Positions 25,180 to 59,569 of a stretch of 64,000 nt of DNA are shown here, piece after piece (within the stretch, counting starts at the first letter, position 1; every line of letters starts with the position of its first letter). The position numbers were made by a program, and so were the translations under genes. This DNA is from an uncultured Bacteroidota bacterium (GTDB lineage Bacteria; CLD3; SB21), in assembly GCA_964563165.1 (NCBI GenBank), contig CAZLWA010000097.1:71893-135892 (forward strand), given 5' to 3'. The notes under the pieces were generated by a model. That model was not told the origin of the DNA and did not search any database. It was given only the letters and a program-made list of their open reading frames with translations.

Positions 25180-25657
25180 AATTCACCTCTATGTTATTTT
25201 TTGTTTTTCCATATTGAGATGCTCTAAAAGGCTCTTAAGATATTTTGACTTGGTGAGGAAGGGATGGCCATCTGTCTCTATTAATCGCTGTTTTTATGGT
25301 TTTACGATCCAACGCAAAATTGAAAATACAGGCGGGAATGGGAATCCCCCGCGACTTTTGTCCTAAGTTGGATGAGAATCCTTCCCCCTTTAATAAAGGG
25401 GGGTGGCAATTCCGGGGGGATTAAATTCGCGGGTGAAATTACAGGTCACCCCTACGGGGTTCTGAATTTTTTATTTTACATTCAGCTACACACAGTTCGC
25501 CCCTACGGGGCTTACTTGCGGAAAGGGTGAGATTCTCAGCCAGAACTCCAGCGTAATGAATAATGAGCAATGAATAATGAGTAATAGAAAGATCTACCCG
25601 ATCAACGTCCATTAATCATTACTCATTATTAATTATTCATTATGAAGCGGAGAGGGT

Positions 25658-25744
25658 GGGATTCGAACCCACGGTAGATTTGCACCCACACCGGTTTTCG
25701 AGACCGGCTCCTTCAACCACTCGGACACCTCTCCCACAACTTAA
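25658..25744 (-). tRNA. tRNA-Ser (anticodon CGA), class II with a long variable arm
   Basis: The minus strand reads GGAGAGGTGTCCGAGTGGTTGAAGGAGCCGGTCTCGAAAACCGGTGTGGGTGCAAATCTACCGTGGGTTCGAATCCCACCCTCTCCG. The anticodon stem is CCGGT/ACCGG, the loop is CTCGAAA, and the T-arm is GTGGG-TTCGAAT-CCCAC. Confidence 0.85.
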
Positions 25745-30404: not shown

Positions 30405-30874
30405 AGCGTCTTCAGGACTTCAATGAACCTGTCTGCATGAACGTCCGCATCAAATTCATTGTGAACTACTTCCAGAATTTTCCCTTCCGGAGAAATGATA
30501 AACGTAACCCGCTTGTTACTTAAAAGTCCGCCTAATCTCTGAACTCCGAATTTTCCGCTCAGTGATTTATCGCCGTCATGAATGAGAGAAAAAGGCAGGT
30601 CATATTTTTCTGAAAAAGCATTGTGCTTTTCGTCCGGGTCCAGACTGATGCCAAAAACCGATCCGCCCAAAGCGCGGATCTCTTTATGGCGGTCTCGAAA
30701 GTGGCAGGCCTGGGACGTGCAAATCCGCGTAAAATCTTTCGGATAAAAATATAAGGCGAAGGCTTTGTGAGTCGAAAAATCTTTTAAATTATATTCCCTG
30801 CCTATGGAATCGTCAAACTCCAAATCCGAGATCATATCGCCTGTTTTAAGCATACATTTCCTCCTTGATAACAT
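30401..30874 (-). CDS. bcp: thiol peroxidase, Bcp-type peroxiredoxin (AhpC/TSA family)
   Basis: It has the FTRICTSQACHF peroxidatic/resolving Cys region and a thioredoxin fold. The ORF is 157 aa. Confidence 0.7.
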   Translation of the reverse strand: MLSRRKCMLKTGDMISDLEFDDSIGREYNLKDFSTHKAFALYFYPKDFTRICTSQACHFRDRHKEIRALGGSVFGISLDPDEKHNAFSEKYDLPFSLIHDGDKSLSGKFGVQRLGGLLSNKRVTFIISPEGKILEVVHNEFDADVHADRFIEVLKTL

Positions 30875-32192
30875 ATTCTTGATTTGATTCTATCTTCTCA
30901 ACGGCAAGATAAGCGCTTTTTACGGCGCTTTCAATAGTTGAAGGCAATCCTGTGTCGGTCCAGTCCCCGATTACAAAAAAATTCGCGATCGGCTGAGCCT
31001 GCCGTAAGGCAACCGAGGAAAAGGTCGCGCTCAGTTCCTTGATAATCTGAAAATGGCAGATCGAATTTTTATCGAATGATTGAAATAAAGATCCTAATTC
31101 CTGCGCAGCCAGACGCACCATTTCTGTTCTCGATAAGCCAAGCATGTTCTCCGCATTGCTGACGGTTAATCCTATACAGCGGTTTGATTTTTTGAATATC
31201 CACTGAATCGTCGTTCCGATGCATCCCACAAAATCCTCTTTAAAAAGTTCATCCACATCCCGGTTGAGCCAAAGATAGATCGAAACGATAGGCCCCGCGG
31301 TAAATCGGGCTGCGGAACCGAAATATTCGTTGAACATATTTTCAGTCAACATATGCTTAAGCACACCCGGCGTAACGGCCGATATATACACGCCGGCTTC
31401 CAGGCATTCTCCATTTTTCAAATAGACTCCCGTGACTACATCTTTTTCGATGCGAAGGCCTTCTACCTCCGCATGTAAGCGTATATTCCCGCCGTTGTTC
31501 TTGATCCATGACCGGGCAGGTTCGACGAATAATTCAGAAAGGCTGACGCGGGGTATGATAATCTTTGAAAAGTCTCTCCCCAGTAAGAACATTTGCCTGA
31601 TAGCCTTAAGAAACATTTTCGCCGAAGCCGTTTTCATGTTTTCGTTCATAACTGCTAAACAAACGGGATTCCAGAAATATTTCTTCAGACCGGCGCTTTG
31701 ATGCAGGCTGTCTAACCAGGCATCCACCGCGCCGGATACGCCGGCATCACTATTTCTCATTCTCAGACCGGCGTACAGCAGCCTGAGCCGGTCTGACAAA
31801 ATTAAACTTCTAAACCGCAAAACGCCGAATATCAGATGAAACGGGGAAACCAATTTTGGAAACGTCAGCGGATACAATTTTTTACCGGGCTCCCTGAACG
31901 GTATCTCGATCCGGTCTTCAATTTTAAGCTTAGCCGTCTGTCCGAGAAAATGGAGCCACCGCAACGTATAGGTATAGCAGCCCATTAAAATGTGCTGGCC
32001 GTTATCAATGACGAAATCCGTTTTCCGGTCCGCAAAAGAATACGTCCGCCCTCCGAGACGGCTGTTCTGTTCCAGCAGAGTAACGGTGTGGCCTTTATCC
32101 GCAAGCACCGTGGCCGCAGCCAGGCCGGCAACGCCTCCGCCGATAATAATTATGGTTTTGCGATCACGGTCGTCCATAGCGTCTTCCTTCAA
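30846..32192 (-). CDS. hpnE: FAD-dependent amine-oxidase-family desaturase, hydroxysqualene dehydroxylase (HpnE)-like
   Basis: It has the Rossmann motif IIIIGGGVAGLAAATVLADKGHTVTLLEQNSRLGGR. At 448 aa it is shorter than CrtI. It overlaps the preceding hpnD-like gene by 29 nt. Confidence 0.6.
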   Translation of the reverse strand: MKEDAMDDRDRKTIIIIGGGVAGLAAATVLADKGHTVTLLEQNSRLGGRTYSFADRKTDFVIDNGQHILMGCYTYTLRWLHFLGQTAKLKIEDRIEIPFREPGKKLYPLTFPKLVSPFHLIFGVLRFRSLILSDRLRLLYAGLRMRNSDAGVSGAVDAWLDSLHQSAGLKKYFWNPVCLAVMNENMKTASAKMFLKAIRQMFLLGRDFSKIIIPRVSLSELFVEPARSWIKNNGGNIRLHAEVEGLRIEKDVVTGVYLKNGECLEAGVYISAVTPGVLKHMLTENMFNEYFGSAARFTAGPIVSIYLWLNRDVDELFKEDFVGCIGTTIQWIFKKSNRCIGLTVSNAENMLGLSRTEMVRLAAQELGSLFQSFDKNSICHFQIIKELSATFSSVALRQAQPIANFFVIGDWTDTGLPSTIESAVKSAYLAVEKIESNQEYVIKEEMYA

Positions 32193-33009
32193 ACCAGGTT
32201 TTGATCACCACGTTGGCTTTCCGGGGTATGGGGATAGAAATTTTTTTTTCCGGCAGCCGGTCCAAATTTTTTTCGATCTTCAGGAGCAACTCGTAATAAA
32301 TATTCTGCATCGCTCGCGCGGGAAAAAGCGCCTGTGACCGTTCCTGTTGGTACCGCTCATTGGCCGCGTCGTAGTAGTCATGAGCCCTCCGGCACTGCAG
32401 CCTCATCAAACTCAAATAGGCGCCCGAATGAGCGGATAAATCGAGCTCAGAGCAAGCAAACAACTTCATTTCATCCGAAGGTAAATAGATCCGGTTCCTT
32501 CTGAGATCCGATGACACATCCCGGATGATATTCGTCAGTTGCATGGCAATACCTGCATCTACGGCATAAGCTTCGGCACCTGAACCGCCTTTGCCCAAAA
32601 TACGGATCGTCATTAAACCTACCGTGGAAGCGACTTTATAGCAATATGTGTATAATTCCTCAAACGTTTGGTAGCGCTTCTTTCGAAGATCCATTTCGAT
32701 CCCGCCGATCAACTCGAAGAATAGTTCAAATGGGATCGTAAATTTTCTGGCGACTGCCATGACCTGATTCAAGAACGGATAATCCGAATGACCTTCCACT
32801 GCCAGGCGGGATTCATCACTCCAATGCTGCAAAAACTGAAGAGAATTGAATGACGGATCCTCGGCCAATTGATCCGCGATGTCATCGGTGTAGCGGCAGA
32901 ATGCATAGACCGTCATGAGCGCTTTTCGTTTTTCTCTCGGCAGCACGAGCATAGGATAGTAAAAACTGCTCCGTGAGCGGCGGACGTAATTGGCGATGGA
33001 AATTTGCAT
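32164..33009 (-). CDS. hpnD: squalene/phytoene synthase family, presqualene-diphosphate synthase (HpnD)-like
   Basis: It has the Asp-rich motifs YAFCRYTDDIAD and a second D-rich box. It is the second of two tandem synthase paralogues. Confidence 0.6.
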   Translation of the reverse strand: MQISIANYVRRSRSSFYYPMLVLPREKRKALMTVYAFCRYTDDIADQLAEDPSFNSLQFLQHWSDESRLAVEGHSDYPFLNQVMAVARKFTIPFELFFELIGGIEMDLRKKRYQTFEELYTYCYKVASTVGLMTIRILGKGGSGAEAYAVDAGIAMQLTNIIRDVSSDLRRNRIYLPSDEMKLFACSELDLSAHSGAYLSLMRLQCRRAHDYYDAANERYQQERSQALFPARAMQNIYYELLLKIEKNLDRLPEKKISIPIPRKANVVIKTWFEGRRYGRP

Positions 33010-33024
33010 GAGGCTATCAGTTCT

Positions 33025-33927
33025 TTAGAATCTTTTGAACAACAACTTTCCCAGCACTATCATTTTGTCCCAACGCGTGAGGGTCGGACGAAAATTCAAC
33101 ACGTCGTAATCATTGTTTTCAATTTTCTCCAATATTCTCATTCCGCTGAGCCAAATCAAAGTTATTTCAAGGCGTTCGCGAAATCTGAGAAACGGCAATA
33201 AGATTTTGCCCTCGTTGAATAAATTCCGTGTACGGTTAATCTGAAATTTCATAAGCCGCCGGAACTGTTCATTGACGACCGGCGTCCCCCAATCGGATAT
33301 GGCATAGCCGCAAGTTTCCAGATCCTCGAGCGGAAGATACAACCGGCCGCTTTTCTGGTCCACAAAAACATCCTGCCAATGATTCGCTAACTGCAGGGCG
33401 GTGCATATGCGATCCGAAGCCGGCATCATGAGCCGCATCTCAGGGTGATGCGCATATCCGAGAATGTGCAACACCAGCCGGCCCACAGGATTTGCGGAAT
33501 AACGGCAATAGTCAAGCAATTCCTCAAACGTGCGATACCGCTGCTTGAAAAGGTCCACTTTGAAAGCGTTTAGAATATTGTCAAAAATTTCCTTTGGGAG
33601 CATCAATTCCTCGACCGAATGCTGCAAGGCAATGAAAATCGGATCCTCGGAGCGTCCCTCGCAGCACGCATCCAGTTTCGATTGCCATTGAGCCAGCCAT
33701 TCCAGCCGCCTGCTTATTTCAACCGATTTGTTATCCGTAAAATCATCTGCGGTGCGCATAAAGGCGTACGCCGCATGAAAATGCTTTCGCTTGTTTTTAG
33801 GAATAAAAAACGAAGCGACGGGAAAATTTTCGTAGTGATATCTCGCGAGTTGCTCGCAATAGGCATACGCTTCACTGACCTGAAGGGAAGTGTGGAATGT
33901 GCGTGGAAGATGTTTTTCCGCAATCAT
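33025..33927 (-). CDS. hpnC: squalene/phytoene synthase family, hydroxysqualene synthase (HpnC)-like
   Basis: It has the Asp-rich motif YAFMRTADDFTDN. It is the first of the tandem pair. Confidence 0.6.
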   Translation of the reverse strand: MIAEKHLPRTFHTSLQVSEAYAYCEQLARYHYENFPVASFFIPKNKRKHFHAAYAFMRTADDFTDNKSVEISRRLEWLAQWQSKLDACCEGRSEDPIFIALQHSVEELMLPKEIFDNILNAFKVDLFKQRYRTFEELLDYCRYSANPVGRLVLHILGYAHHPEMRLMMPASDRICTALQLANHWQDVFVDQKSGRLYLPLEDLETCGYAISDWGTPVVNEQFRRLMKFQINRTRNLFNEGKILLPFLRFRERLEITLIWLSGMRILEKIENNDYDVLNFRPTLTRWDKMIVLGKLLFKRF

Positions 33928-35683: not shown

Positions 35684-36001
35684 GCATTCTCCTGACGTTT
35701 CAAGGATTCCAATATATTGAGAGATGTTTTGAAAATCAATAAAAGATAGTGCCGATGCGGTCGTTTCCGCGAATTCCGGATGGTCATTGGCGGTGTGAGG
35801 GCTGAAAGCCCCGGCGTGCCGAAGGAAGCCTTGTATGAATCGCTTGAAGGCCGGAATCCCTCAAATTATTTCTTGATAATAAAAAACGATTCGTATATAT
35901 TCATTTTCGCCCTTTAACAGGTCGCTAATCCCCAATCCGTGCAAATTCGGCGTCAAAATTTTCGATAAGACTTTCAGAAAATCCAACTCACCGGAGCGTG
36001 C

Positions 36002-38122
36002 GTGCCGATACAAAAACTTGGAAGATACGAAGTGGCAGAAGTTCTGGGCCAGGGCGCCATGGGCATCGTGTATAAAGGCATTGACCCGAAGATCGGACGC
36101 ACGGTAGCGCTCAAAACGCTCAAGACCACGGGAGAAATTCCTGCCGATCAGCTCTCCGAATTCAAACGCCGCTTTTCACAGGAAGCTCAATCCGCCGGAC
36201 GTCTCGCGCATCCTAATATTGTAACGATCTACGATGTCGGTGAAGAAGAAGGTCTCGCCTACATTGCCATGGAATTCATTAAAGGCAAGGCGCTCGACGA
36301 ATACATCGCTGAGAAGCATGCGTTCACGATCGACCAGATTGTGAGTATCATGACGCAGATTTGCGAAGGACTGGGCTACGCGCACAAGAACGGTGTCATT
36401 CATCGCGATATTAAACCGGCAAATATCGTTCTCACCGACGATAAGGTTGCCAAGATTACCGATTTCGGCATTGCAAAGATTACTTCCATGAGCGCCACGC
36501 AAAGCGGTGTGGTCGTCGGCACTCCCAGCTATATGTCACCGGAGCAAATTACGGGTAAAGGCGTGGACAACCGCTCGGATATTTTTTCGATCGGTGCGGT
36601 ATTTTATGAATTGCTGACTCACGAAAAAGCGTTTCCAGGCGACAATATCACGACCGTCATGTACCGTGTCGTGCACGAAAACCCCGCGCCGGTCACCAGC
36701 ATCAATATGGCGGTTCCGACGCAATTCACTCCCATACTGCTCAAAGCCATGGCAAAAAACCCTGCCGACCGTTACCCCGATGCGGAGACCATGTCAAAAG
36801 ATATTCAAAATTATAAGGCCTTCACGGCGATGCAATCGGGGGCCACACAGGTATTTCGCCCCGATTCGGCCGGAACGGTCATGATGACCGGCGCTGCGGA
36901 TGTTGGTGCAGTAACATCGGGCGGCATGCTGCAATCTGCGGTGAAAAACAAAAAGCTCCTGATACTTTCAGGCACAGCAGTGGCGGCGTTAATCGTTCTC
37001 TTATTTCTCGTTTTTGGAAATAAAGCGCCCTCGAATTCCGCGTCGCTCGAATTGAGTTTGAATATCTTTGACGGTACGGTGCGCGTCGATTCAGCGGATT
37101 TCAATATTGATAATGGAAAGCTGTTTATTCCCAAATTGGAAGCATCCGAACACTCCGTCAATATCAAGCACGAGGGCTACGAAGAATTCAAGACGAAACT
37201 CCTGTTCGCCGAAAACGAACAGAAAACATTCAATGTGGAAATGAAATTACTCCCTGTGCAGTTCCCTGCGGGTGTGGACACCGGCTTCATCACGGTCAAT
37301 GCGAAACCCGCAGTCGTAAAGGTTCTCACCAACGCCGGGGCTTTTATTTGTTACTCACCGGTGAACAAGCTGCCTTTTCCTGTTGGAAAGCGCACACTGG
37401 TTTTTTCGAGAGAGAATTATGTCAGTAAGGTGCTGGATATCGACCTGAGAAAGAAAAGAGAATTGAAACTTACACCTTCGCTCGATGCCAAGAAGGGACT
37501 TATTTCATTGGCCGATGTCAATCCGAAAAAAGTTCAAGTATTTGTGGATAATAATTTGCTCAAACCTGAAAAAGACGGCGTCACGTACACTCTGCAGATC
37601 GGAAAGCAGAAAATTCTACTGAAACAAGACGGTTTCAAGCCTCTCGAAAAGGAAATTACGGTTTCTGAAAAAGATGTTCTAAAGATCGACGCCAGCCTCG
37701 AACAGTTGTACGGCAAGCTTGCCATCACATCCAATCCGGACGGCGCCGATGTATTCATTGACGGCAGCAACGTAGGAAAGACTCCGCTCACTCTCGAATC
37801 CGTTGCAGCCGGTGTGCGCGACATTAAAGTTCAAAAAGGGGCGATGACGTCCATTAAAAAAATTACGGTGGCCGAGGGTAAAGAAAACTCCGCGGATTTT
37901 AAATTGCAGGCGCTAGTCGGGTACTTGAAATTTCTCATCAATCCGTGGGCAAAGATTTATATCGACGGCCGTGAATACGGCGCTTCGCCGCCGCTCGATA
38001 ACCTGGAATTGAAACCCGGAACGTATAAGATCAAGATGGAAAATCCTGCGTTCAAAGCGGTGACCAGGACAGTCACCATTACGGCCGGCGCGAGCGCAAC
38101 GCTGCAGTATGATTTCAAATAA
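36002..38122 (+). CDS. Hanks-type Ser/Thr protein kinase with a TM segment and C-terminal PEGA-like repeats (paralogue of 22008-24149)
   Basis: It has GQGAMGIVYKG, HRDIKPANIV, DFGIAK and GTPSYMSPE. A TM lies around residue 320. The C-terminal repeats are ITSNPDGADVFIDG… and INPWAKIYIDG…. Its N-terminal 300 aa are alignable by eye to the other kinase. Confidence 0.8.
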   Translation: MPIQKLGRYEVAEVLGQGAMGIVYKGIDPKIGRTVALKTLKTTGEIPADQLSEFKRRFSQEAQSAGRLAHPNIVTIYDVGEEEGLAYIAMEFIKGKALDEYIAEKHAFTIDQIVSIMTQICEGLGYAHKNGVIHRDIKPANIVLTDDKVAKITDFGIAKITSMSATQSGVVVGTPSYMSPEQITGKGVDNRSDIFSIGAVFYELLTHEKAFPGDNITTVMYRVVHENPAPVTSINMAVPTQFTPILLKAMAKNPADRYPDAETMSKDIQNYKAFTAMQSGATQVFRPDSAGTVMMTGAADVGAVTSGGMLQSAVKNKKLLILSGTAVAALIVLLFLVFGNKAPSNSASLELSLNIFDGTVRVDSADFNIDNGKLFIPKLEASEHSVNIKHEGYEEFKTKLLFAENEQKTFNVEMKLLPVQFPAGVDTGFITVNAKPAVVKVLTNAGAFICYSPVNKLPFPVGKRTLVFSRENYVSKVLDIDLRKKRELKLTPSLDAKKGLISLADVNPKKVQVFVDNNLLKPEKDGVTYTLQIGKQKILLKQDGFKPLEKEITVSEKDVLKIDASLEQLYGKLAITSNPDGADVFIDGSNVGKTPLTLESVAAGVRDIKVQKGAMTSIKKITVAEGKENSADFKLQALVGYLKFLINPWAKIYIDGREYGASPPLDNLELKPGTYKIKMENPAFKAVTRTVTITAGASATLQYDFK

Positions 38123-38137
38123 CTCAAAGGCAACGGT

Positions 38138-38836
38138 ATGAATAAGGGGTATATTATACTTTTTGTGCTTGTATGGACTTTAGCCGCGGGTTGCGGCACC
38201 GCATCCAAACAGGCGGTATCAAAAACCGAAAGGAAAGAAGATTCCGAAGCCTTGCTCAATCTAGGACTGGAAGCCTACAAAGCACGCAATTATGAAAATG
38301 CAAAGAATTTGTTGTTCAAAGCGTCCGGACAAAATCTCTCGGGCGATCAATTGATCTCCGCGCACAAGCATTTGGCCTTCATTCACGCTCTGCAGAAAAA
38401 TACCGGAGCCGCTACGAAAGAATTTCTAAAGGCCTTTTATCTGGACAAGGATTTCCAACTCGATAATTCGGAAACCGGCAATCCCCTATGGATGCCTTCC
38501 TTCATCGAGGCTGCGAAACAGTTCACGCAGACTCACGCCGCCGGCTCTGAGCTTTATTCGGAAGGAACGAACGCGTTTGAGAAGAGAAATTACAACGCCG
38601 CGCTTGCCTCGCTGGAAGCCGCCGTCAAGAAAGAGGATTTAAGCCGGGACAAAAAAGCGGCCGCTTACAAATTCATCGCGTTTATTTATTCCATTCAAAA
38701 AAAACCGGCCTATGCCAAAGCCGCGTTCCGAAAAGCTTTTAGATTGAATAACTCTTTTGAATTAGATAAATCGGAATACGGCAATCCTGCCTGGACGCCG
38801 CTATACGATGAAGTTAAGAAAGAATTTAAAAAATAA
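38138..38836 (+). CDS. lipoprotein with two internal ~90 aa TPR-like repeats
   Basis: The lipobox is LAAGC. Each repeat ends in the motif GNP(L/A)W(M/T)P. It lies 15 nt after the kinase stop. Confidence 0.6.
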   Translation: MNKGYIILFVLVWTLAAGCGTASKQAVSKTERKEDSEALLNLGLEAYKARNYENAKNLLFKASGQNLSGDQLISAHKHLAFIHALQKNTGAATKEFLKAFYLDKDFQLDNSETGNPLWMPSFIEAAKQFTQTHAAGSELYSEGTNAFEKRNYNAALASLEAAVKKEDLSRDKKAAAYKFIAFIYSIQKKPAYAKAAFRKAFRLNNSFELDKSEYGNPAWTPLYDEVKKEFKK

Positions 38837-38851
38837 TTCCCTGGAGAACCC

Positions 38852-40777
38852 GTGGCTTCTTTAGTTTTGGTCGACAAGGACAATACCGGTCAGCGTTTCA
38901 TCGTTGAAAAAAACGAAATGACGATCGGCCGCAAACCCGAAAACGATTTTCTTATTTCCAATGTGATGATATCCGGCAAGCACGCGAAAGTAACGAAAAA
39001 TAAAAGTCAATTTTTCATCACCGATCTCAACAGCACCAATGGCACGTTTGTTAACGGCACACGTATCGTGGCACAGACGGAAATCAAGCATAAGGACCGG
39101 ATAAACTTGGGCGCCGTCAACCTGATTTTTCTTGAAGACGACAGCGCCACCATTGAATTCGATAAACTTCAGGGACCGCCGAAAGAAACGCCGTTGATGA
39201 AGCCCGAAGACACAAGCTACGCGACGCAAGTGAATTCGGAAAAATTGGCAGCCATGGTGCAATCGCTGAAGACCATCGTTCTGAGCGGCGCGGCGGACCG
39301 AAACGCGCTCACAAATCAATTCACGGAATTGGAGCACTCCTTTCAGCTGCTCAACAATCAATTGAAAGAATCGGAGAAGTTTCAGCAGAAACTCAACGTG
39401 CTTTACGAAGTCGGTAAAATAATTAACCACATTCTCGACCAGGACGAATTATTAAAGACCATTCTAGATCTGGCGCTGAAAGTAATGAAGGCCGATTGCG
39501 GCTTTATCATGCTTTACAACGATAAGAACGAACTGGAAGCAAAGATTTCCCGCAAGATCGAGGCGGATGAAATCGGCACGTCTTCGGCGACATTCAGCAC
39601 GACGATTTCCAAGCGGGTCGCTGAAACGGCTGAGAGTATCTTGACGTCGGACGCTCAGAATGACGACCGCTTTCAAAGCGGTGCAAGCATTATCTCCCAT
39701 CACATTCGCTCCGTGATCTGCACGCCCATGAAAAATAAGGACCAGAAGATCATTGGCGTGATTTACGTCGGATCCAATGTGATGTCCAACGTGTTCTCCA
39801 AGAGCGACGTGGAATTGCTGGAAGCCTTTTCGAATCACGCGGCCATCTCGATCGAGAACGCCAAGTTGTACGAAGAACGGCGCCGTAAGGAACATCTGAA
39901 GAGCGCGCTGGAACGTTACGTATCCAAGCAAATTGCCGAAGCGATCATTGACAAAGACGGATCCGGCGAAGTTCGCTTTCAGCCGGAAAAAAAACAAGTC
40001 ACGCTCGTTTTCACCGACGTTCGCGGGTTTACAACCCTGGCCGAGGGAATGAGTCCTGAAGATATGGTTGAAATCCTGAACCGGTACTTCACGGAAATGA
40101 TCAAGATCATTTTCAAGTACGGCGGGACCTTGGACAAATTCATCGGCGATGCCATCATGGCGATGTTTGGGGCGCCCGCTTCAACCGGACAGGACGCGCC
40201 GAACGCCGTCATGGCGGCGCTGGAGATGCAGAAGGAACTCATCGTTTTTAATGAAGAACAGAGAAAGTTGAAAAAACCGGCAATAAAAATCGGCATCGGA
40301 ATCAATACGGGTACGGTGGTCGTTGGCAATATCGGATCCGATCAGCGTATGGAATATACGGCCATCGGTGATACGGTGAATTTGGCGTCGCGCCTGGAGG
40401 GAGCCAATAAAGAATACAGTACCAATATCATGATCAGTGAATGGACACTCGAAGCGGTCAGCCGCATTGTGATTACGCGTGAATTGGATCTAATACGCGT
40501 CAAAGGCAAGGAAAAACCTGTTAAAGTATTCGAAGTCCTGGGATCTGCCTCGGACGGCATATCCTCAGATATGAAGAAAACCACCGAGTTATTCAGCCAG
40601 GGTTTAGCCGCTTATCGAAAGCAGAAATGGGATGAGGCGATCGGCCACTTCAATGCCGCCCTGGAAGTCAAGCCGGATGACGGGCCGTCGAAAGTCTATG
40701 TCGAACGCTCCGAAGTATTCAAAAAGAACCCGCCGGCGGGAAAGTGGGACGGCGTATTCACGATGCTCACAAAATAA
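38852..40777 (+). CDS. FHA - coiled-coil - GAF - class III adenylyl cyclase - C-terminal TPR multidomain protein (GTG start)
   Basis: The FHA domain includes …TIGRKPENDFLISNVMISGKHAKV…TDLNSTNGTFVNG. The GAF domain includes LYEVGKIINHILDQDELL…. The cyclase domain has VTLVFTDVRGFT, …LDKFIGDAIMAMFG and …IGDTVNLASRLE. Lys in LDKFIGD occupies the adenine-specifying position. It lies 15 nt after the lipoprotein stop. Confidence 0.8.
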   Translation: MASLVLVDKDNTGQRFIVEKNEMTIGRKPENDFLISNVMISGKHAKVTKNKSQFFITDLNSTNGTFVNGTRIVAQTEIKHKDRINLGAVNLIFLEDDSATIEFDKLQGPPKETPLMKPEDTSYATQVNSEKLAAMVQSLKTIVLSGAADRNALTNQFTELEHSFQLLNNQLKESEKFQQKLNVLYEVGKIINHILDQDELLKTILDLALKVMKADCGFIMLYNDKNELEAKISRKIEADEIGTSSATFSTTISKRVAETAESILTSDAQNDDRFQSGASIISHHIRSVICTPMKNKDQKIIGVIYVGSNVMSNVFSKSDVELLEAFSNHAAISIENAKLYEERRRKEHLKSALERYVSKQIAEAIIDKDGSGEVRFQPEKKQVTLVFTDVRGFTTLAEGMSPEDMVEILNRYFTEMIKIIFKYGGTLDKFIGDAIMAMFGAPASTGQDAPNAVMAALEMQKELIVFNEEQRKLKKPAIKIGIGINTGTVVVGNIGSDQRMEYTAIGDTVNLASRLEGANKEYSTNIMISEWTLEAVSRIVITRELDLIRVKGKEKPVKVFEVLGSASDGISSDMKKTTELFSQGLAAYRKQKWDEAIGHFNAALEVKPDDGPSKVYVERSEVFKKNPPAGKWDGVFTMLTK

Positions 40778-40885
40778 CCTTACCCATTTCCGGATTCCTC
40801 TTTTTTCGTCTATTGATTCTTGCTTCCAAATCCACTATTTTCCGGACACACTCACTCTTTGCTTTCTCACTTTTTTGAAAGCCAT

Positions 40886-42106
40886 CCGATGAATCTGGAT
40901 GATCTCATTTATGATTGGAATCAGGAAGCCAATCGCGCGCATAAGCCTCCGCAGGCTTTTGAGCTGAATGACGAAACCCTGCGAGACGGACTGCAATCGC
41001 CTTCCGTCAACACGCCGACGCTTCCTCAAAAAATTGAGATATTGCATGCCATGGAACAATTGGGTATTCACGCCGCGGATATCGGATTGCCCGGAGCGGG
41101 CCCGCACGTACTTGAACACGTCGTTGCTTTGGCCAAAGAAATTGTTCAAAATAAATTCAAAATACAGCCGAACTGCGCCGCCCGCACGTTGAAAGCAGAT
41201 ATCGATCCGGTCATCGAAGCGTCTCAAAAAGCGGGCATTTCCATCCAGGTCTGCACTTTCATCGGCTCGAGCCCGATTCGTCAATACGCCGAAGGATGGA
41301 CGATAGATCAACTGCTCGCATTTACCGAAAGCGCCGTGTCGCACGCGGTAAAAAATAACCTGGACGTGATGTACGTGACCGAAGACACTACCCGCGCCCA
41401 TCCCGACGATATTCGCAGACTGTATCTTACGGCGATCCGGGCTGGAGCAAAGCGGGTCTGCCTTGCGGATACCGTGGGCAACGCCACGCCGGAAGGCGTG
41501 CGCCGCCTTGTTGATTACATGAAAGAAGTTGTGACGGAAAGCGGCGAAGCCGTCAAGATAGACTGGCACGGGCACAACGACCGCGGTCTCGCCGTTGCCA
41601 ACGCGATCGCGGCTTTACAGGCGGGTGCACACCGTATTCATGGCACCGGCATCGGCATCGGCGAGCGCATCGGAAATGTGCAGATGGATCAATTGATGGT
41701 CAATTTGAAACTCAAAGGGTGGATCGACAATGACCTGACGATGCTGCCCGTTTACTGCAAGAAAATTTCTGACTACACGGGCATTGCCATCCCGTGGAAT
41801 TATCCGATCTTCGGGCGCGATGCCTTTCGCACCGGCACGGGCGTTCACGCTTCCGCCATTTTGAAATCTTTGAACAAAGGAGACATGGATTTGGTAGACC
41901 GCGTGTATTCCAGCGTGCCTGCAAGCATGTTCGGGCTCGAACAAGTAGTGGAGATCGGTCCGCTCAGCGGCGAATCCAATGTCATCTATTGGCTCAAAAA
42001 GCGCAAGATCGAACCGCGCGATGAATTGGTAAAAAAGATCTTCGAGGCCGCTAAAAAATCAACGACGGTACTCTCCGACGAGCAAGTCTTCAGTTTGTGT
42101 AAATAA
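40886..42106 (+). CDS. 2-isopropylmalate / homocitrate / citramalate synthase family protein (HMGL-like TIM barrel), short form
   Basis: It has ETLRDGLQSP (compare TLRDGEQ) and HGHNDRGLAVANAIAALQAGA (the HxH…N metal site). The track ORF starts upstream, but MNLDDL at about 40886 is the likely start. Confidence 0.55.
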   Translation, partial: PMNLDDLIYDWNQEANRAHKPPQAFELNDETLRDGLQSPSVNTPTLPQKIEILHAMEQLGIHAADIGLPGAGPHVLEHVVALAKEIVQNKFKIQPNCAARTLKADIDPVIEASQKAGISIQVCTFIGSSPIRQYAEGWTIDQLLAFTESAVSHAVKNNLDVMYVTEDTTRAHPDDIRRLYLTAIRAGAKRVCLADTVGNATPEGVRRLVDYMKEVVTESGEAVKIDWHGHNDRGLAVANAIAALQAGAHRIHGTGIGIGERIGNVQMDQLMVNLKLKGWIDNDLTMLPVYCKKISDYTGIAIPWNYPIFGRDAFRTGTGVHASAILKSLNKGDMDLVDRVYSSVPASMFGLEQVVEIGPLSGESNVIYWLKKRKIEPRDELVKKIFEAAKKSTTVLSDEQVFSLCK

Positions 42107-42115: not shown

Positions 42116-43774
42116 ATGAAACTGCTTATGGCGCTGCTGGTTGTCGGATTCCTTAGTACAGACGAATCGGCTCATTCTCAAGACAAAAAGTACTGGATCT
42201 TTTTTCGCGATAAAGAAATTGACAAACCTTCCGAATTAAATCTTTCCAAAAGAACCCTCCAGCGCCGTTTGAAAGCAACGTCACCGGTCTCGGACGATTA
42301 CGACATTCCGGTCTCTCGTTCCTACATCGAGAAGATCCGCGCGATGAATGTTTCCGTGCACCATCAATCACGATGGCTCAATGCGGTGAGCGTGAACATG
42401 AACGATGAGCAGAGATCAGCGGTCATGCAATTGCCATTTGTGAAAGCGGTTAGGACGGTTGCGCGGGCGTTGAAAAATAAAACAGCAAAAATAAGCCGCG
42501 CCGTAAATCGTGGTTCATCCGTGGCCGTTCCGGATTACGGGTTCTCTCTTGTTCAAAACAAGATGATCAATACGGTTGCCGCGCATCAAATGGGGTACAG
42601 CGGCGTAGGTGTTGTCATCGGTATGATGGATACCGGATTTAATCTGGATCACAAAGCCCTTCGCTATATTCACGTCTCGGGTCAGTACGATTTTGTCGAT
42701 CAGGACACCATTGTTTCAGAAGGAATTCCGGGCGATAAACAGCGTCACAGTCACGGCACGCAGGTACTATCGGCGATAGCCGCCTATGATAATGGAAATT
42801 CTATCGGAACGGCTTTCGGGGCGTCGTATCTGTTAGCGCGCACCGAAAACGACGACGGCATAGGACAAAAGGCGGAAGAAGATCAATGGATAGCGGGATT
42901 GGAATGGCTTGAACAACAAGGCGCGGATATCGTCAGCAGCTCGATCAGTTTTTTCGACGATTTCCAAAATGCGTCCGACAATTATCATCTTTCCGATCTC
43001 GACGGTTCTACCGCACTCACAACCATTGCGACTGCCATCGCGTTTGACAAGGGCGTTCTCGTTCTCAATTCCGCCGGCAATATGGGTGACCGCGGGCCTA
43101 AATATTTAGGTACCCCTTCGGACGGAAAAAAAATGATCGCCGTGGGCGCCGTTTACAGCGACAGCACGGTCACCGACTTCAGCTCCCGCGGGCCCACAGC
43201 CGACGGCAGAAAAAAACCGGACCTTGCGGCCCTGGGTTCCAGCGTTGCCGTCGTGGATGCGGGTGATACCTCGGCGTATTCTTTCGAAGCCGGCACGTCG
43301 TTGTCTGCGCCGCTGGTTGCCGGACTGGCGGCATTGGTCCTGGAAGCTCATCCGGCATGGTCTGCGAGACAACTGTATAATGCAATCCGGAAAACTTCCA
43401 GCCGGGGTTCGCATCCGGATAACCTCATCGGGTACGGCATTCCTGACGCCGTCAAGGCCATTAATTATCTTTCATACAACCATTCAAATATTCAAATCCA
43501 GGATATCAGCAATTTTCCAAACCCGGGCAGCGAAACAATCTCTATTCAATTCAGATCGCTTTTGACAGCCGCATTTTCAATTCAAATCTACAACGCACTC
43601 GGACAATTAGTTGCGACCCTTGCAAAAAATGAACCGGCAGTAATAAATCAGACCATACGTAAAGTTTGGAGCGGAAGGAATGATCAGGGTATGAAGGTAA
43701 GTTCAGGAGTCTATTTCTATCAGATCACGATGGCCGGAGAGTCTATCACACAGAAAATTCTATTGGTGAAGTGA
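42116..43774 (+). CDS. subtilisin-like serine peptidase (S8) with a type IX secretion system C-terminal sorting domain
   Basis: It has a signal peptide. The catalytic motifs are D (MMDTGFNLDH), H (HGTQV) and S (GTSLSAPLVAG). The C-terminal ~80 aa (…NFPNPGSETISIQF…SGVYFYQITMAGESITQKILLVK) resemble a Por/T9SS CTD. Confidence 0.8.
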   Translation: MKLLMALLVVGFLSTDESAHSQDKKYWIFFRDKEIDKPSELNLSKRTLQRRLKATSPVSDDYDIPVSRSYIEKIRAMNVSVHHQSRWLNAVSVNMNDEQRSAVMQLPFVKAVRTVARALKNKTAKISRAVNRGSSVAVPDYGFSLVQNKMINTVAAHQMGYSGVGVVIGMMDTGFNLDHKALRYIHVSGQYDFVDQDTIVSEGIPGDKQRHSHGTQVLSAIAAYDNGNSIGTAFGASYLLARTENDDGIGQKAEEDQWIAGLEWLEQQGADIVSSSISFFDDFQNASDNYHLSDLDGSTALTTIATAIAFDKGVLVLNSAGNMGDRGPKYLGTPSDGKKMIAVGAVYSDSTVTDFSSRGPTADGRKKPDLAALGSSVAVVDAGDTSAYSFEAGTSLSAPLVAGLAALVLEAHPAWSARQLYNAIRKTSSRGSHPDNLIGYGIPDAVKAINYLSYNHSNIQIQDISNFPNPGSETISIQFRSLLTAAFSIQIYNALGQLVATLAKNEPAVINQTIRKVWSGRNDQGMKVSSGVYFYQITMAGESITQKILLVK

Positions 43775-48370: not shown

Positions 48371-48976
48371 TTAGATAGTTACTCTTCCTTCCATCGCCCG
48401 GGTCAGTGTGGTCATATCGGCGAATTCCAGATCGCTTCCGATCGGGATGCCCCGCGCTATTCTGGAGATCTTCATGCCGTGGAGTTTTTCGGCGATATAC
48501 ATGACCGTGGCGTCGCCAGGAACATTGGGATTGATTGCAAAAATGACTTCTTTTACGTCCTTATTTATCCTCTCGATCAACTCCCGGATTTTCAGATCTT
48601 CCGGGCCGACTCCTTCGAGCGGATTCAAAAGTCCGCCAAGCACATGATACACACCGCGAAACTGGTCAATACGCTCGAGCGCAAGCACATCGTTAGCTTC
48701 TTCCACAACGCAAATCGTCTGATGATCACGCTTGGAATTAGTGCAAATAATACAAGGATCGCCCTCCGTAACATTAAAGCATATCGAGCAGCGTCTGATT
48801 CTTTCCATCAAATTAACCAGCGCTTTGGAAAGGGTCAATACGTCTTCTTTTGGCTGCTTCAATAGGTGGAATGCCAATCTCTGAGCGGTTTTACGGCCGA
48901 TGCTCGGAAGCTTCGACAGTTCATTGATCAGCTGTTCTAACGATTCAGATGTATATTGCATAATTTCCAGCCACAC
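48371..48976 (-). CDS. recR: recombination protein RecR
   Basis: It has an N-terminal HhH, the C4 zinc finger CSICFNV…CIIC, and a Toprim domain. The ORF is 201 aa. Confidence 0.9.
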   Translation of the reverse strand: MWLEIMQYTSESLEQLINELSKLPSIGRKTAQRLAFHLLKQPKEDVLTLSKALVNLMERIRRCSICFNVTEGDPCIICTNSKRDHQTICVVEEANDVLALERIDQFRGVYHVLGGLLNPLEGVGPEDLKIRELIERINKDVKEVIFAINPNVPGDATVMYIAEKLHGMKISRIARGIPIGSDLEFADMTTLTRAMEGRVTI

Positions 48977-49031
48977 TGTCCCTAAGAGACTAACAAACTC
49001 TCGAGTCTTCGTGTCTTAGCGGTAAATATTT

Positions 49032-50801
49032 TCAATTCTTAAATGACACATCCACCAACTCCGCATCAAATAATTCAATCACCTTTTTCAAAGGGTTTTG
49101 TTCCTGCAGCTGGCGGACGTATTTGAATAATTCCGCTGCGTCTCCGTTCCCGTTTTTTTCCTGAACTCCGGCATCCACGGTCGGATACCGGTCGAATAGA
49201 TCTTCATCCGTTTTTTCAGACGCGGCACTGACCTGCTGGTTGGCGGCAATAGGCCTATCCAAATCGCATTGGATGCGAAACCGTTGACCAACGGCCTCCT
49301 TCAAAACGCCTGCAAGATAGTCTTTTTCTTTGTGAATAATCTCCGCATGAAAGTCGTTCATCTCCGAATTGATAAATCCGACGTGCACCGCGTCCGTTTT
49401 GACCGACACGGGAACGGAATGCTCCAAGATCGAACCGACGCGGCGCTTATCCGTTTTCACGCGCTCCACGATGACATTCCACTGCGCCTGGACCTGTTGC
49501 AGTGTAACTTCAGTTTTGGTCGTTGGAATTGATTTCCCGCCGGATTGAAGAAGAGACGGGACCGGCGCGGGATCGGTAACGGCAATATTTTGAGGTGGCG
49601 AATGTACTTCTACTGAATTAAGTTTTTTTTTTACGGCATCGGCCGGGGCGCCGGTGCCGGCCGTTTGGCCTATGGACTCGATGGTATCGATCAAGTCGGA
49701 AATCGCTACGGTATTTTCCATCTGAATCAATTTCATCAGCAGCAGTTCAAAAATAAATTTCTGTTTGATGCTCCATTTGATCCGTTGAATCGTCTCAGAA
49801 ACCAGATTCATCATACGCAGTAAGTCGGGTTCGGTGAAGTTCACGCACGTTTGCGCATACTGCGCCTGATAACTTTCGAACACCTCCGTCAGCGCCTTCG
49901 CGCCGCAGGCTTTCGCCATCAGCAGATTCCGAACATGCCCGAGAAATCCGTTCAGAAATTCCGTGATGTCCCAGCCGGCGTCCAAAACTTTTTCCGAAAA
50001 CGTAAACCCGTCGGCGATATTCTTTTTTTTGATGATCTCGGTAAGTTCGAAGTGCACATGTAAATTAATAATACCGAGCGATTGACGCACATCCGCAATC
50101 TTCACTTTCATTCCGCAAAATGAAACCACCTGATCCAGCAGCGTCAGCGCATCGCGCAATCCGCCATCCGACATCTGGGCAATGGCAAAAAGCGATTCTT
50201 CGTCCATTTCTATTTTTTCGACGTCACAAATGACCTTCAGGCGTCCGACGATTTTTTCAATCGGGACGCGCTTAAAATCGAAACGCTGACACCGCGACAA
50301 GATGGTCGGTAGGATCTTGTGCGGCTCGGTCGTGGCAAAAATAAAAATCACCTGCGGGGGCGGTTCTTCCAGCGTTTTCAAAAGAGCATTGAACGCATCC
50401 TTGGTGATCATATGAAATTCGTCGATGATGTAGATTTTGTATCCTCCGCGAACGGGCATGTAGCGCACGTTATCCCGGAGACTGCGAATTTCATCGATAC
50501 CGCGATTCGAAGCGCCGTCGATTTCCAGAACATCCAAACTGCGCCCGCCTGTAATTTCCGTACAGTTCACACATTCGTTGCAGGGCGTGATCGTCGGCCC
50601 GCCTTTCTCGCAGTTGATGGCTTTGGCGAAAATTCTCGCCGACGTCGTTTTTCCGACGCCGCGCGGACCGGAAAAAATATACGCATGCGCGATACGCTTT
50701 GATTCGATCGCGTTTTTTAGCGTCGTCGTGATGTGTTCCTGGCCGATCACATCATCGAAGACCATCGGACGATATTTGCGCGCAATAACTAGGTAAGACA
50801 T
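49032..50801 (-). CDS. dnaX: DNA polymerase III subunit tau/gamma
   Basis: It has the Walker A motif GPRGVGKTT, the zinc module CNECVNC and SRC-type motifs. It is 589 aa. An A10 run lies at codons ~389-392. Confidence 0.9.
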   Translation of the reverse strand: MSYLVIARKYRPMVFDDVIGQEHITTTLKNAIESKRIAHAYIFSGPRGVGKTTSARIFAKAINCEKGGPTITPCNECVNCTEITGGRSLDVLEIDGASNRGIDEIRSLRDNVRYMPVRGGYKIYIIDEFHMITKDAFNALLKTLEEPPPQVIFIFATTEPHKILPTILSRCQRFDFKRVPIEKIVGRLKVICDVEKIEMDEESLFAIAQMSDGGLRDALTLLDQVVSFCGMKVKIADVRQSLGIINLHVHFELTEIIKKKNIADGFTFSEKVLDAGWDITEFLNGFLGHVRNLLMAKACGAKALTEVFESYQAQYAQTCVNFTEPDLLRMMNLVSETIQRIKWSIKQKFIFELLLMKLIQMENTVAISDLIDTIESIGQTAGTGAPADAVKKKLNSVEVHSPPQNIAVTDPAPVPSLLQSGGKSIPTTKTEVTLQQVQAQWNVIVERVKTDKRRVGSILEHSVPVSVKTDAVHVGFINSEMNDFHAEIIHKEKDYLAGVLKEAVGQRFRIQCDLDRPIAANQQVSAASEKTDEDLFDRYPTVDAGVQEKNGNGDAAELFKYVRQLQEQNPLKKVIELFDAELVDVSFKN

Positions 50802-50849
50802 GACTTAAGCAATGAGACTTTCGTGTTTTTTGCCGGACCTATAAAAAAA

Positions 50850-50946
50850 GCCCAAGCTTGTTACGGCACATCCAAGGATACGCCTACCGTTGCTTCCTTC
50901 CGGACCTGGCGGGGTTCAGCTGCCTCAAATTGCGTAAGGCTCGGGC
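50850..50946 (-). ncRNA. ffs: signal recognition particle RNA (small bacterial 4.5S type)
   Basis: The minus strand carries the conserved domain IV motif CCAGGTCCGGAAGGAAGCAACGG. The 5' GCCCGAGC pairs with the 3' GCTTGGGC, followed by a T7 tract. Its position immediately upstream of dnaX is the common ffs-dnaX arrangement. Confidence 0.8.
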
Positions 50947-51067: not shown

Positions 51068-52342
51068 TCAATTCTTATGAGGATCTCTATATCTCACGGT
51101 TCCCGTAAGGATCGGAATGGCGATGCTGACGAGTACTGTGAAGACAAACATACCCATTGCCCAGATGCCGAGACCGACGCATAATTCGACCCACGTCGGG
51201 GAATATTCGACGATCTTTCCCCACGGTCCGGGAATGAATCCTGGAACGATCAAACCCATCCCCTTTTCAATCCAGATACTGACAAAGAGTATCCCGCACG
51301 CGGGGAGCAGCCACTTACGATTGTTTCGAAGCGGGTGAAGAGTCAGAATTCCCGTCGCGATGAGATTCATCGAAATCGCCGTCCATATCCAGGGCTTCAA
51401 TCGGTCAAACCCCTCCAGTCCGAAAAACAGATACACGGCACTTTCACTGTGATGCGTGGGTTTGTAAAATTCTTTAAAGAGCTCAGAACCGAGCATAATC
51501 AGATTGATTTGCGCGGCGACGGTTACGATCAGGGCAATCTTGCCGATGGTTACATTTTCAACCCAATAGGCCGTGAATCTCCTGACTACGGAGAGCACAA
51601 TGATAATCAGCGCAGGACCCGCAGAAAATGCCGACGCCAAAAATCGCGGACCCAGTAACGACGAGTTCCAAAAAGGCCTCGCCGGTAAACCCGCGTATAA
51701 AAACGCCGTAACAAGGTGAATACAGAAAGCCCAAAAGACGGAAATGATCACGCCCGGTACGTACACCTTAGGATTAGGATGCTTGCCCTGGTAATGGCAC
51801 ATCAGAATATAAAACGGAATTGTCAGATTGAGAAACAAATATCCGTTAAGAACAAGGACGTCCCAGGTGAGCATGGAGCTGGGCCAGTTCAATAGTCCGA
51901 TGCCGGGAATCAAATGCCATGCGCGGGCCGGACCGCCTAAGTCAACTGTCACGAACGCCAGACACATGCACAACGCGCCCACCGCGACTCCTTCACCGAT
52001 CAATACTGCTTTTGAAAAATCCAGGTCCTTCAGAATATAGGTTGGCAATACGAGCATCACGGCAGCCGCCGCAACGCCTACGAGAAAAGTGAAATTGGAA
52101 ATGTAAAATCCCCAACTCACACGATCGTTCATACCGGTCACGCCTAAACCCTCACGCAGCTGAACGGAGTAGGCGTATACGCCAACCAGCATCACAAAAG
52201 TAAGCGTGCCCATCCAAACGTGATAAGCTAGGCCTCCGCGCGTAATGCTGTTGAAAGCATCTTTAATAAACGATAAGACGATCGTTGGCCTTATGTCGTC
52301 CGTGATTTTTCCGGCCGTGTGCGGCGATTCGGTGTGTTCCAT
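51068..52342 (-). CDS. NrfD/PsrC-family polytopic membrane quinol-interacting subunit
   Basis: It is 424 aa with about 10 TM helices. It lies 3 nt downstream of the Fe-S subunit gene. Confidence 0.75.
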   Translation of the reverse strand: MEHTESPHTAGKITDDIRPTIVLSFIKDAFNSITRGGLAYHVWMGTLTFVMLVGVYAYSVQLREGLGVTGMNDRVSWGFYISNFTFLVGVAAAAVMLVLPTYILKDLDFSKAVLIGEGVAVGALCMCLAFVTVDLGGPARAWHLIPGIGLLNWPSSMLTWDVLVLNGYLFLNLTIPFYILMCHYQGKHPNPKVYVPGVIISVFWAFCIHLVTAFLYAGLPARPFWNSSLLGPRFLASAFSAGPALIIIVLSVVRRFTAYWVENVTIGKIALIVTVAAQINLIMLGSELFKEFYKPTHHSESAVYLFFGLEGFDRLKPWIWTAISMNLIATGILTLHPLRNNRKWLLPACGILFVSIWIEKGMGLIVPGFIPGPWGKIVEYSPTWVELCVGLGIWAMGMFVFTVLVSIAIPILTGTVRYRDPHKN

Positions 52343-52345
52343 AAA

Positions 52346-59566: not shown

Positions 59567-59569
59567 CAC

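Follow-up and report, generated by a model that had tools for sequence, protein, structure and literature searches.

The window analysed here (64,000 nt of contig CAZLWA010000097.1 from an uncultured Bacteroidota bacterium, positions 71,893 to 135,892 of the forward strand) contains three adjacent genes that encode a predicted membrane Ser/Thr kinase with PEGA repeats, a lipoprotein of the TssQ family (TssQ_fam) and a predicted FHA-GAF class IIIb adenylyl cyclase (Table 1). We read these genes as one operon for an envelope-to-cyclic AMP (cAMP) signalling unit, in which the kinase would generate a phospho-threonine, the FHA domain would recognise it and cAMP synthesis would respond, and we assign to this reading a probability of about 0.6. 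An earlier note on the same DNA had proposed such a relay from membrane Ser/Thr phosphorylation to cAMP. That proposal is supported by the presence of kinase genes directly beside FHA-GAF-cyclase genes in a WOR-3 genome and in a second distant group, and by 81 loci in which the three functions occur in permuted form; the relay itself is what we infer.

Table 1. Features of the three-gene locus and of related loci. Coordinates refer to the window or, for type A modules, to the locus named.
Feature	Coordinates	Strand	Basis
Sigma-70-like promoter match TTGATA-17-TATATT	35873..35901	+	best match within the 318 nt that separate the kinase gene from its divergent neighbour
Hanks-type Ser/Thr kinase (predicted), 706 aa	36002..38122	+	Pfam, hydropathy, orthologue alignment
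"PW-PEGA" domain, kinase C-terminus (NPWAKIYIDGREYGASPPLDNLELKPGTYKIKMEN...)	37910..38119	+	purpose-built hidden Markov model (HMM), 129 bits
TssQ-family lipoprotein, 232 aa; repeat modules at nt 38240-38521 and 38534-38833	38138..38836	+	
FHA-GAF class IIIb adenylyl cyclase (predicted), 641 aa	38852..40777	+	Pfam, HMM, alignments, AlphaFold2 (AF2)
Segments of the cyclase protein: FHA; disordered linker and long helices; GAF; transducer helix; cyclase domain; TPR-like tail	FHA 38855-39133; GAF 39362-39871; cyclase domain 39968-40540; tail 40544-40774		
hpnC / hpnD-like / hpnE squalene-synthesis genes, divergent from the trio	30846..33927	-	NCBIfam
Type A modules	L010 8719-12170; L091-L170; L171 8825-11712; L172 8814-10618		

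The three open reading frames (ORFs) lie on the same strand with a gap of 15 nt at each junction, exactly as the coordinates and spacers had been given in the earlier note. No terminator-like site was found on the plus strand between the genes of the trio, the sole match on that strand (40883-40901) lying past the stop codon of the cyclase gene, and a Shine-Dalgarno-like GGAG stands 5' of the GTG start of the latter. The promoter candidate upstream of the kinase gene agrees with the consensus at 10 of 12 positions; it is a consensus match only, and the host, whose DNA has a GC content of about 48% here, may use other promoter types. The arrangement of the kinase, lipoprotein and cyclase genes looks like the packing of an operon.

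The product of the first gene, earlier described as a Hanks kinase with PEGA-like extracytoplasmic repeats, has the features expected of a receptor-type Hanks-type (eukaryote-like) Ser/Thr kinase and is classified as such by prediction. In Pfam, residues 9-258 match Pkinase (E 3e-56) and four stretches match PEGA (E 2e-40), and hydropathy analysis gives a single hydrophobic segment (316-344), equivalent to one transmembrane helix, beyond which the PEGA repeats are predicted to be periplasmic. The kinase motifs VALK, HRDIKPAN, DFG and GTPSYMSPE are intact and are kept across the orthologue alignment. The juxtamembrane segment (residues 262-317) is rich in Thr and Ser and includes T282 (GATQVF, with a hydrophobic residue at +3), which is invariant in the orthologues and in a paralogue encoded in the window. 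The terminal PW-PEGA domain shares 34% identity (E 6e-18) with the C-terminal domain of a cyclase-homology protein from Usitatibacter that is described below.

The paralogous PEGA kinase (22008-24149) shows 39% identity overall and has the same juxtamembrane Thr. As had been noted earlier, it has neither a lipoprotein nor an FHA partner, and the earlier description needs correction only in that the gene lies on the minus strand; its neighbours are a sodium:solute symporter gene and a 215-aa ORF without a Pfam match. The PW-PEGA HMM found no match in this paralogue, the last PEGA of which is not of the PW subtype.

The second gene encodes a protein with a signal peptide (MNKGYIILFVLVWTLAAG followed by C) in which the lipobox LAAG-C, ending in Cys19, stands behind a hydrophobic N-terminus; the lipobox Cys is invariant among 33 family members. 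Its two TPR-like repeats have 40% identity over 91 aa (E 2e-20), and both close with the conserved loop F-x-L-x3-E-x-G-N-P-x-W-x-P, which agrees with the previous description of a lipoprotein with two repeats of about 90 aa ending in GNPxWxP. That description had not recognised the protein as a member of a family. Scored against the NCBIfam model NF038027 ("TssQ family T6SS-associated lipoprotein", where T6SS stands for type VI secretion system), the lipoprotein obtains 109.4 bits in two stretches (cut-off 65), and its relatives obtain 84-202 bits; by this measure it is no orphan and is assigned to the named family TssQ_fam. A profile search of 1.84 billion representatives returned 663 TssQ_fam cluster representatives at E <= 1e-10, and the majority among the 150 best matches listed were single-repeat proteins of 130-180 aa.

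For the third gene, the earlier reading of FHA, coiled coil, GAF, class III cyclase and TPR agrees with the Pfam matches: FHA at residues 24-87 (E 8e-20), GAF_2 at 196-335 (E 3e-18), Guanylate_cyc (PF00211) at 379-557 (E 1e-27) and, weakly, TPR_2 at 580-610. The two domains on which that reading turned, FHA and cyclase, are thus both confirmed. Hydropathy analysis of the protein found no hydrophobic segment. In the AF2 model (mean pLDDT 77), residues 3-94 form the FHA beta-sandwich and residues 104-125 a disordered linker, after which two long helices (129-144 and 150-191) fit the coiled coil. The GAF domain closes with a long helix (317-353), and a short one (359-367), the catalytic domain and a helical pair (572-603) follow.

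The catalytic domain is most similar to that of Pseudomonas aeruginosa CyaB (PDB 3r5g; E 5e-45). An alignment of 19 homologous FHA-GAF-cyclase proteins, 36-84% identical to the window protein, showed that the metal-binding D389 and D433, the adenine-specifying K429 (LDKFIGD) and the transition-state residues N510 and R514 are invariant, and that T503 (MEYTAIGD), at the second specificity position, is kept in at least 90% of them. The key catalytic residues are thus all present and conserved on alignment. The adenine-specifying Lys had already been placed in LDKFIGD by the earlier note and does align with the corresponding Lys of CyaB; the second specificity residue has to be corrected to Thr, as in class IIIb, not Asp. 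The motifs around K429 and T503 match DKFVGD and MDYTIIG of CyaB, and D389, D433, N510 and R514 align with their CyaB counterparts. By its catalytic residues the window protein is classified as a class III adenylyl cyclase of subclass IIIb, for which cAMP synthesis is predicted, and the retention of the six catalytic residues across 36-84% identity argues for selection on enzymatic activity.

In the FHA domain, G26, R27, S41 and H44 are invariant in the same 19 homologues, as are S61 and G64 of the STNG segment, and T65 is kept in at least 90%. The domain thus carries the fold and the conserved residues of a phospho-threonine-binding FHA domain (PF00498), and phospho-dependent peptide binding is predicted for it. 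Its nearest relatives in sequence are OdhI/GarA and FhaB, and it also matches the FHA domain of Bdellovibrio DgcB (PDB 6hbz) and PDB 3gqs. The nearest solved relative of the GAF domain is the cGMP-binding GAF-B of PDE2A (E 5e-15), and the GAF domain of an HD-GYP protein is also close; of its NKFDE motif, N, F and D align, and K and E are replaced. The domain is of a type related to GAF domains that bind cyclic nucleotide monophosphates, and a cyclic nucleotide is a possible ligand.

The C-terminal tail of the cyclase protein, of about 75 aa, consists of a TPR pair followed by the pattern ...DGPSKVY.ER...PP.GKWDGVF.M..K. Close relatives of 641-645 aa with this tail are at least 73% identical to the window protein, and the tail is missing from orthologues of 563-570 aa at 57-67% identity. 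Tail and catalytic domain move as a cassette, present in about 30 proteins without FHA from Acidobacteriota, Bacteroidota, Ignavibacteria, Bdellovibrionales and cyanobacteria (loci within L037-L089), among them Nostoc GAF-GAF-cyclase-tail proteins that resemble CyaB1; identity to the cassettes of Nostoc, Spirulina, Acidobacteriota, Bacteroidota and Ignavibacteria proteins is 40-46%.

Co-location of the three genes was confirmed in every close relative examined, and close clusters of the lipoprotein number 29. In the loci L001-L005 (cyclase identity 73%, 65%, 59%), a PEGA kinase gene is followed by the gene of a 232-243-aa lipoprotein and then by the cyclase gene, and since the trio is intact in L005 though the downstream genes differ, the trio itself is the conserved unit. 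Kinase linkage extends beyond these relatives. A WOR-3 genome has a PEGA kinase gene 128 nt downstream of the cyclase gene, with no lipoprotein; at two related loci with common flanking genes, a kinase whose sensor is an NHL/beta-propeller is encoded just ahead of the cyclase gene, with a gap of 8 nt or an overlap of 4 nt between the two genes. One further FHA-GAF-cyclase locus has no kinase.

A domain-permuted form of the trio, here called type A, is known from 81 loci: one in a metagenome-assembled genome (MAG) of Usitatibacter (Betaproteobacteria) and 80 obtained in a metagenome scan with the lipoprotein alignment. The gene order is cyclase-homology domain-transmembrane helix-PW-PEGA, then a TssQ-like lipoprotein, then a tail-anchored Ser/Thr kinase. 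In the Usitatibacter MAG the 424-aa product of the first gene has a cyclase-homology domain at its N-terminus (22.6 bits in Pfam, 92% probability in hhalign), a transmembrane helix and a C-terminal PEGA-like domain, and the other two genes encode the TssQ-like lipoprotein and a kinase whose sole membrane element is a C-terminal anchor. Counted by HMM in loci long enough to be tested, the kinase is encoded directly downstream of the lipoprotein gene in 76 of 77 loci, PW-PEGA directly upstream of it in 74 of 74, and the cyclase-homology domain farther upstream in 49 of 49. In other lineages, two lipoproteins with a single repeat are likewise encoded directly downstream of a cyclase-homology gene, in one case together with a kinase.

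The window locus (type B) and type A have in common the three functions, the lipoprotein family and, immediately 5' of the lipoprotein gene, the terminal PEGA subtype; PW-PEGA, lipoprotein, kinase and cyclase are the parts shared. They differ in that the periplasmic PEGA domain of type A is fused to the cyclase-homology protein and not to the kinase, in the order cyclase-lipoprotein-kinase, and in the lack of FHA and GAF domains. In all cases PW-PEGA stands immediately ahead of the lipoprotein gene, as part of either the kinase or the cyclase-homology protein, and the lipoprotein would therefore be the partner of PW-PEGA. The near-constant company of a kinase and a cyclase-type domain with PW-PEGA and lipoprotein is the strongest evidence that the three products would act jointly. 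The cyclase-homology domain of type A keeps both metal Asp, the Asn and the Arg, and its two specificity positions hold Leu/Ile and Asn; because these last are non-canonical, the type A product may not be cAMP. No description of the type A trio was found in the literature searched.

These comparisons bear on the explanation that gene adjacency at the window locus is inherited synteny of a single lineage, with no functional coupling. We consider it very unlikely. Most FHA-GAF-cyclase genes elsewhere have no adjacent kinase and the trio in its window form occurs in a single uncultured lineage, as this explanation would have it; however, it accounts poorly for the 15-nt spacers, for a trio that is kept despite changed flanks, for kinases with another kind of sensor that adjoin the cyclase in at least one other lineage, and for the recurrence of the three functions with swapped fusions in 81 loci.

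The wider distribution of the cyclase architecture was surveyed with the cyclase alignment in one genome per species, which gave at least 80 loci (L011-L090), 47 of them with FHA-GAF-cyclase among the matches listed, mainly from Acidobacteriota, Gemmatimonadota, Myxococcota and Desulfobacteraceae. No close relative of the window was among the matches listed, and universal kinase adjacency for FHA-GAF-cyclases was rejected, because only 4 of the 47 loci have a kinase domain within 10 kb. In a protein search the architecture proved common, with more than 6000 matches at E <= 1e-20 and the majority of the top 120 sharing it. At L016 (6737-14911), from a Pseudomonadota MAG, there is an FHA-GAF-cyclase gene (+), an fn3 protein gene (+), the gene of a 524-aa protein with PEGA and multiple TPR (-), that of a 450-aa protein with weak TPR (+) and a PEGA kinase gene (-); this looser cluster may represent yet another layout, the third, of these parts.

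In the mechanism that we propose for the window trio, the kinase would span the inner membrane once, and the PEGA repeats ending in PW-PEGA would form, with the TPR lipoprotein, the sensing half, a role suggested by the invariant adjacency of their genes. The signal would activate the kinase and yield a phospho-threonine, most likely in its own juxtamembrane segment at T282. The N-terminal FHA domain of the soluble cyclase would dock on this residue, and docking would shift a dimeric arrangement of helix, GAF and transducer helix and so alter cAMP synthesis by the class IIIb domain, with the GAF domain providing a second, small-molecule input. The parts that we infer are the contact between lipoprotein and PEGA, which site is phosphorylated, whether the cyclase is activated or inhibited, and what kind of signal is sensed.

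In the leading alternative, the kinase would instead phosphorylate the cyclase itself, in the disordered linker between FHA and GAF, and the FHA domain would bind this site in cis or across the dimer, as in GarA/OdhI and DgcB, and so rearrange the dimer. Besides the disorder of this linker in the AF2 model, the closest homologues offer candidate sites: a D-T-[SG]-[YF] motif is present in five of the six closest, and an ATQ motif like that of the kinase juxtamembrane segment occurs in the window protein and its closest homologue. The similarity of the FHA domain to OdhI/GarA and to DgcB is also consistent with this alternative, since binding of a phosphopeptide, namely its own phosphorylated tail, to the FHA domain of DgcB (FHA-GGDEF) activates the enzyme (PMC6733907). 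We nevertheless regard it as unlikely, because the linker is absent or very different in homologues of 35-41% identity that still adjoin kinases, no N-terminal tail precedes the FHA domain of the cyclase, and the kinase juxtamembrane segment also holds a conserved Thr.

Several observations weigh against the proposed relay from kinase to cAMP. A kinase domain lies within 10 kb in only 4 of the 47 FHA-GAF-cyclase loci from other phyla among the matches listed, which is about the chance level in kinase-rich genomes; kinase adjacency is therefore lineage-specific and not architecture-wide, and such FHA domains can evidently use unlinked kinases. Type A lacks the adenine-specifying Lys in its cyclase-homology domain, and it has no FHA domain, so that the link between kinase and cyclase must differ there. 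The fold of the lipoprotein is a generic TPR and hence uninformative about the identity of its partner. No cAMP receptor was found among the scanned ORFs of the window, and a PP2C phosphatase is absent from the operon, the closest candidate being a GAF-SpoIIE protein 27 kb away. The gene of the latter (GAF and SpoIIE, PP2C-type; 8434-9696, plus strand) is the sole Ser/Thr-phosphatase-like gene seen in the window.

The name of the lipoprotein family raises the question of its relation to type VI secretion. A search of plasmid and chromid records (PLSDB) with a single-repeat family member gave matches in Burkholderia arboris and B. stagnalis. In B. arboris (NZ_CP101525.1, about 2752000-2783000; L176, and L174 8946-10846), a TssQ_fam ORF is located directly upstream of the gene of a T6SS FHA protein (FHA and T6SS_FHA_C) and is divergent from TssJ, TssK and TssM, and the same locus holds a 785-aa Ser/Thr kinase, TssA, TssC, TssG and ClpV. 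This locus ties TssQ_fam to Hanks kinase/FHA signalling in T6SS loci too. The record is unannotated; a 267-aa ORF beside the kinase gene and a 477-aa ORF beside TssM have no Pfam match. Two proteins called TssQ were considered as the explanation of the NCBIfam family and rejected: that of Bacteroidota is a transmembrane helical T6SSiii component and a different protein (PMC10781749), and that of Proteus is merely the last tss gene.

The T6SS threonine phosphorylation pathway is known from P. aeruginosa and Agrobacterium (for its logic, PMC13584744; also PMC3953482). Compared with TagQRST-PpkA-Fha1-PppA of P. aeruginosa and with the Burkholderia locus, the window module likewise has a membrane Hanks kinase, an FHA reader of phospho-threonine and an envelope lipoprotein that would act with the kinase, and the succession of a lipoprotein gene and an FHA gene, plus a kinase, is common to the window and the T6SS loci. 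The output differs, the window FHA domain being fused to GAF and adenylyl cyclase instead of the T6SS_FHA_C scaffold domain; there are no T6SS genes, no TagR/S/T (ABC-type TagS/T) and no PppA/PP2C phosphatase near the trio; and the window lipoprotein has two repeats and the window kinase has PEGA repeats. The resemblance to the T6SS pathway is, as judged from these features, one of logic only.

That the module is itself the type VI secretion pathway would be in keeping with the membership of its lipoprotein in TssQ_fam and with a Burkholderia member located inside a T6SS locus beside Fha and a kinase. Yet a scan of roughly 50 ORFs of the window found no T6SS core gene, no T6SS gene recurs among the neighbours of 28 long type A loci, and the window FHA protein carries GAF and cyclase and no T6SS_FHA_C, so that we hold this explanation to be extremely improbable. 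From these distributions we conclude that TssQ_fam would serve Ser/Thr kinases in general as a partner and would not be a T6SS component.

The T6SS and type A loci also offer some grounds for a further alternative, in which the FHA-cyclase protein would serve mainly as a phospho-dependent scaffold or regulator, or metabolites sensed by its GAF domain would feed back on the kinase, with cAMP secondary or absent. T6SS Fha proteins are scaffolds and not enzymes in the same lipoprotein-FHA-kinase gene context, and the cyclase-homology domains of type A have non-canonical specificity residues. On the other side stand the six catalytic residues kept in the 19 homologues of the window protein, and the alternative seems to us quite improbable.

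The genes divergent from the kinase gene encode ThiO, a DUF4149 protein, HpnC, an HpnD-like protein and HpnE. Against the NCBIfam models, HpnC scores 300 bits (cut-off 250), HpnE 347 (cut-off 283) and the HpnD-like protein 240, which is under its cut-off of 279. The hpnCDE genes are upstream and divergent in all four window-type loci (4/4). In type A they are also found: hpnC-D-E lies just upstream in the same orientation as the trio, with a short-chain dehydrogenase/reductase gene between, in 11 of the 24 loci with enough upstream sequence, among them L010 (hpn genes at 4857-7830) and loci within L096-L167. These 11 loci have a GC content of 49-66% and kinase domains 69-97% identical. By comparison, hpnCDE was absent in all 80 loci (L011-L090) listed by the genome scan with the cyclase alignment, and these loci all lack the lipoprotein module. 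A link with alanine racemase, seen in L010, is not general (2 of 26 loci).

The presence of hpnCDE beside the module in two unrelated lineages suggests either a link to squalene/hopanoid lipids or a larger inherited block, and for this reason the sensed signal may be a hopanoid- or squalene-derived lipid state or the integrity of the outer membrane. On this basis, we tentatively put forward a broader and rather doubtful proposal, in which the TssQ-family lipoprotein and the Hanks kinase would form an old modular envelope-sensing cassette, responsive to one of these signals and coupled to three outputs or more: T6SS firing by way of Fha in Burkholderia, the membrane cyclase-homology protein in type A (a form abundant in the metagenome collection), and the FHA-GAF cyclase in the window. 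The readout would be cAMP or, in type A, another cyclic nucleotide.

All parts of the window module are assigned by sequence comparison to known families, namely Hanks kinase, PEGA, TssQ_fam, FHA, GAF and class IIIb cyclase. With class IIIb cyclases (P. aeruginosa CyaB and the cyanobacterial CyaB1/CyaB2 type), the third protein shares the catalytic domain, the Lys/Thr pair and the TPR tail, and the GAF domain of CyaB1 is upstream of the cyclase, as in the window protein. Unlike the CyaB1/CyaB2 type, the latter has one GAF domain (with a partial NKFDE motif), no PAS domain, an added N-terminal FHA domain and a kinase in its operon. Fusions of FHA with a cyclase exist in cyanobacteria (Synechocystis Cya1, Anabaena CyaD); Cya1 and CyaD are not known to have a GAF domain. 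The FHA domain solved as PDB 3gqs belongs to a Chlamydia "adenylate cyclase-like protein" and is likewise fused to a nucleotide cyclase. Among these FHA-cyclases and DgcB, none with a cognate kinase and a lipoprotein in one operon was found in the literature searched. DgcB differs from the window protein in that it makes cyclic di-GMP and in that the ligand of its FHA domain is its own tail.

The pairs of Ser/Thr kinases and FHA proteins of mycobacteria and corynebacteria (PknB/PknG with GarA/OdhI, FhaA and FhaB) also have a Hanks kinase with an extracytoplasmic sensor and FHA effectors, and they include the FHA domain nearest in sequence. In the window the effector is a predicted second-messenger enzyme, the sensor is PEGA and not PASTA, and the organism appears to be diderm. 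The earlier note had recognised no named system in this architecture and neighbourhood, and literature searches found no description of them; nor did the literature searched contain a description of a kinase/FHA-GAF-cyclase or PEGA-kinase system, and no case of a direct bacterial kinase-to-cAMP relay through an FHA domain was found in full-text literature searches. The operon of kinase, TssQ-family lipoprotein and cyclase, like its permuted form, thus appears to be undescribed in the literature searched.

The remaining genes of the window provide the setting of the trio. Downstream it is adjoined by an HMGL-like ORF (isopropylmalate/homocitrate synthase family; 40820-42106, plus strand), the start of which is probably ATG 40889 and not TTG 40820, because its orthologues have 405 aa; a start at 40889 would leave about 110 nt behind the cyclase stop. 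It is followed by the gene of an S8 subtilase (42116-43774, plus strand) with a C-terminal Por_Secre_tail (type IX secretion sorting domain), which adjoins the trio in L001 and L003 too; its sorting domain is a hint that the organism belongs to the FCB group. RecR, DnaX and signal recognition particle RNA (50847-50946) are encoded within 48371-50946 on the minus strand, 8-10 kb downstream of the trio, and likewise in L001 and L003, there together with YbaB. At L171 a DnaX-YbaB-RecR block (5282-7767) stands about 1 kb upstream of the type A trio, with one pseudouridine-synthase gene between; its presence near both trios is probably a coincidence.

Farther away, a respiratory-type cluster on the minus strand (51068-57219) encodes a molybdopterin oxidoreductase (769 aa), two multihaem cytochrome c7/NapB-like proteins, a 4Fe-4S protein and an NrfD-type membrane subunit. 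Also encoded on the minus strand are a sensor kinase of the HAMP-HisKA-HATPase type (2683-4113) and a tyrosine recombinase of the XerC/D type (4201-5094), and the genes of tRNA-Ser(CGA) and tRNA-Pro(TGG) lie at 25647-25734 (minus strand) and 59492-59567 (plus strand), respectively.

Bacterial Hanks kinases and class III cyclases are very numerous, and inputs or partners are known for very few of them; the locus presented here is a compact, testable three-protein system. The lipoprotein family listed by NCBI as T6SS-associated would have a wider function, that of partnering Ser/Thr kinases. The domain-swapped relatives constitute a natural experiment, in which the constancy of PW-PEGA predicts a contact between PEGA and the lipoprotein, and the repeated linkage with hpnCDE offers a lead to the signals that sensors of this kind may respond to.

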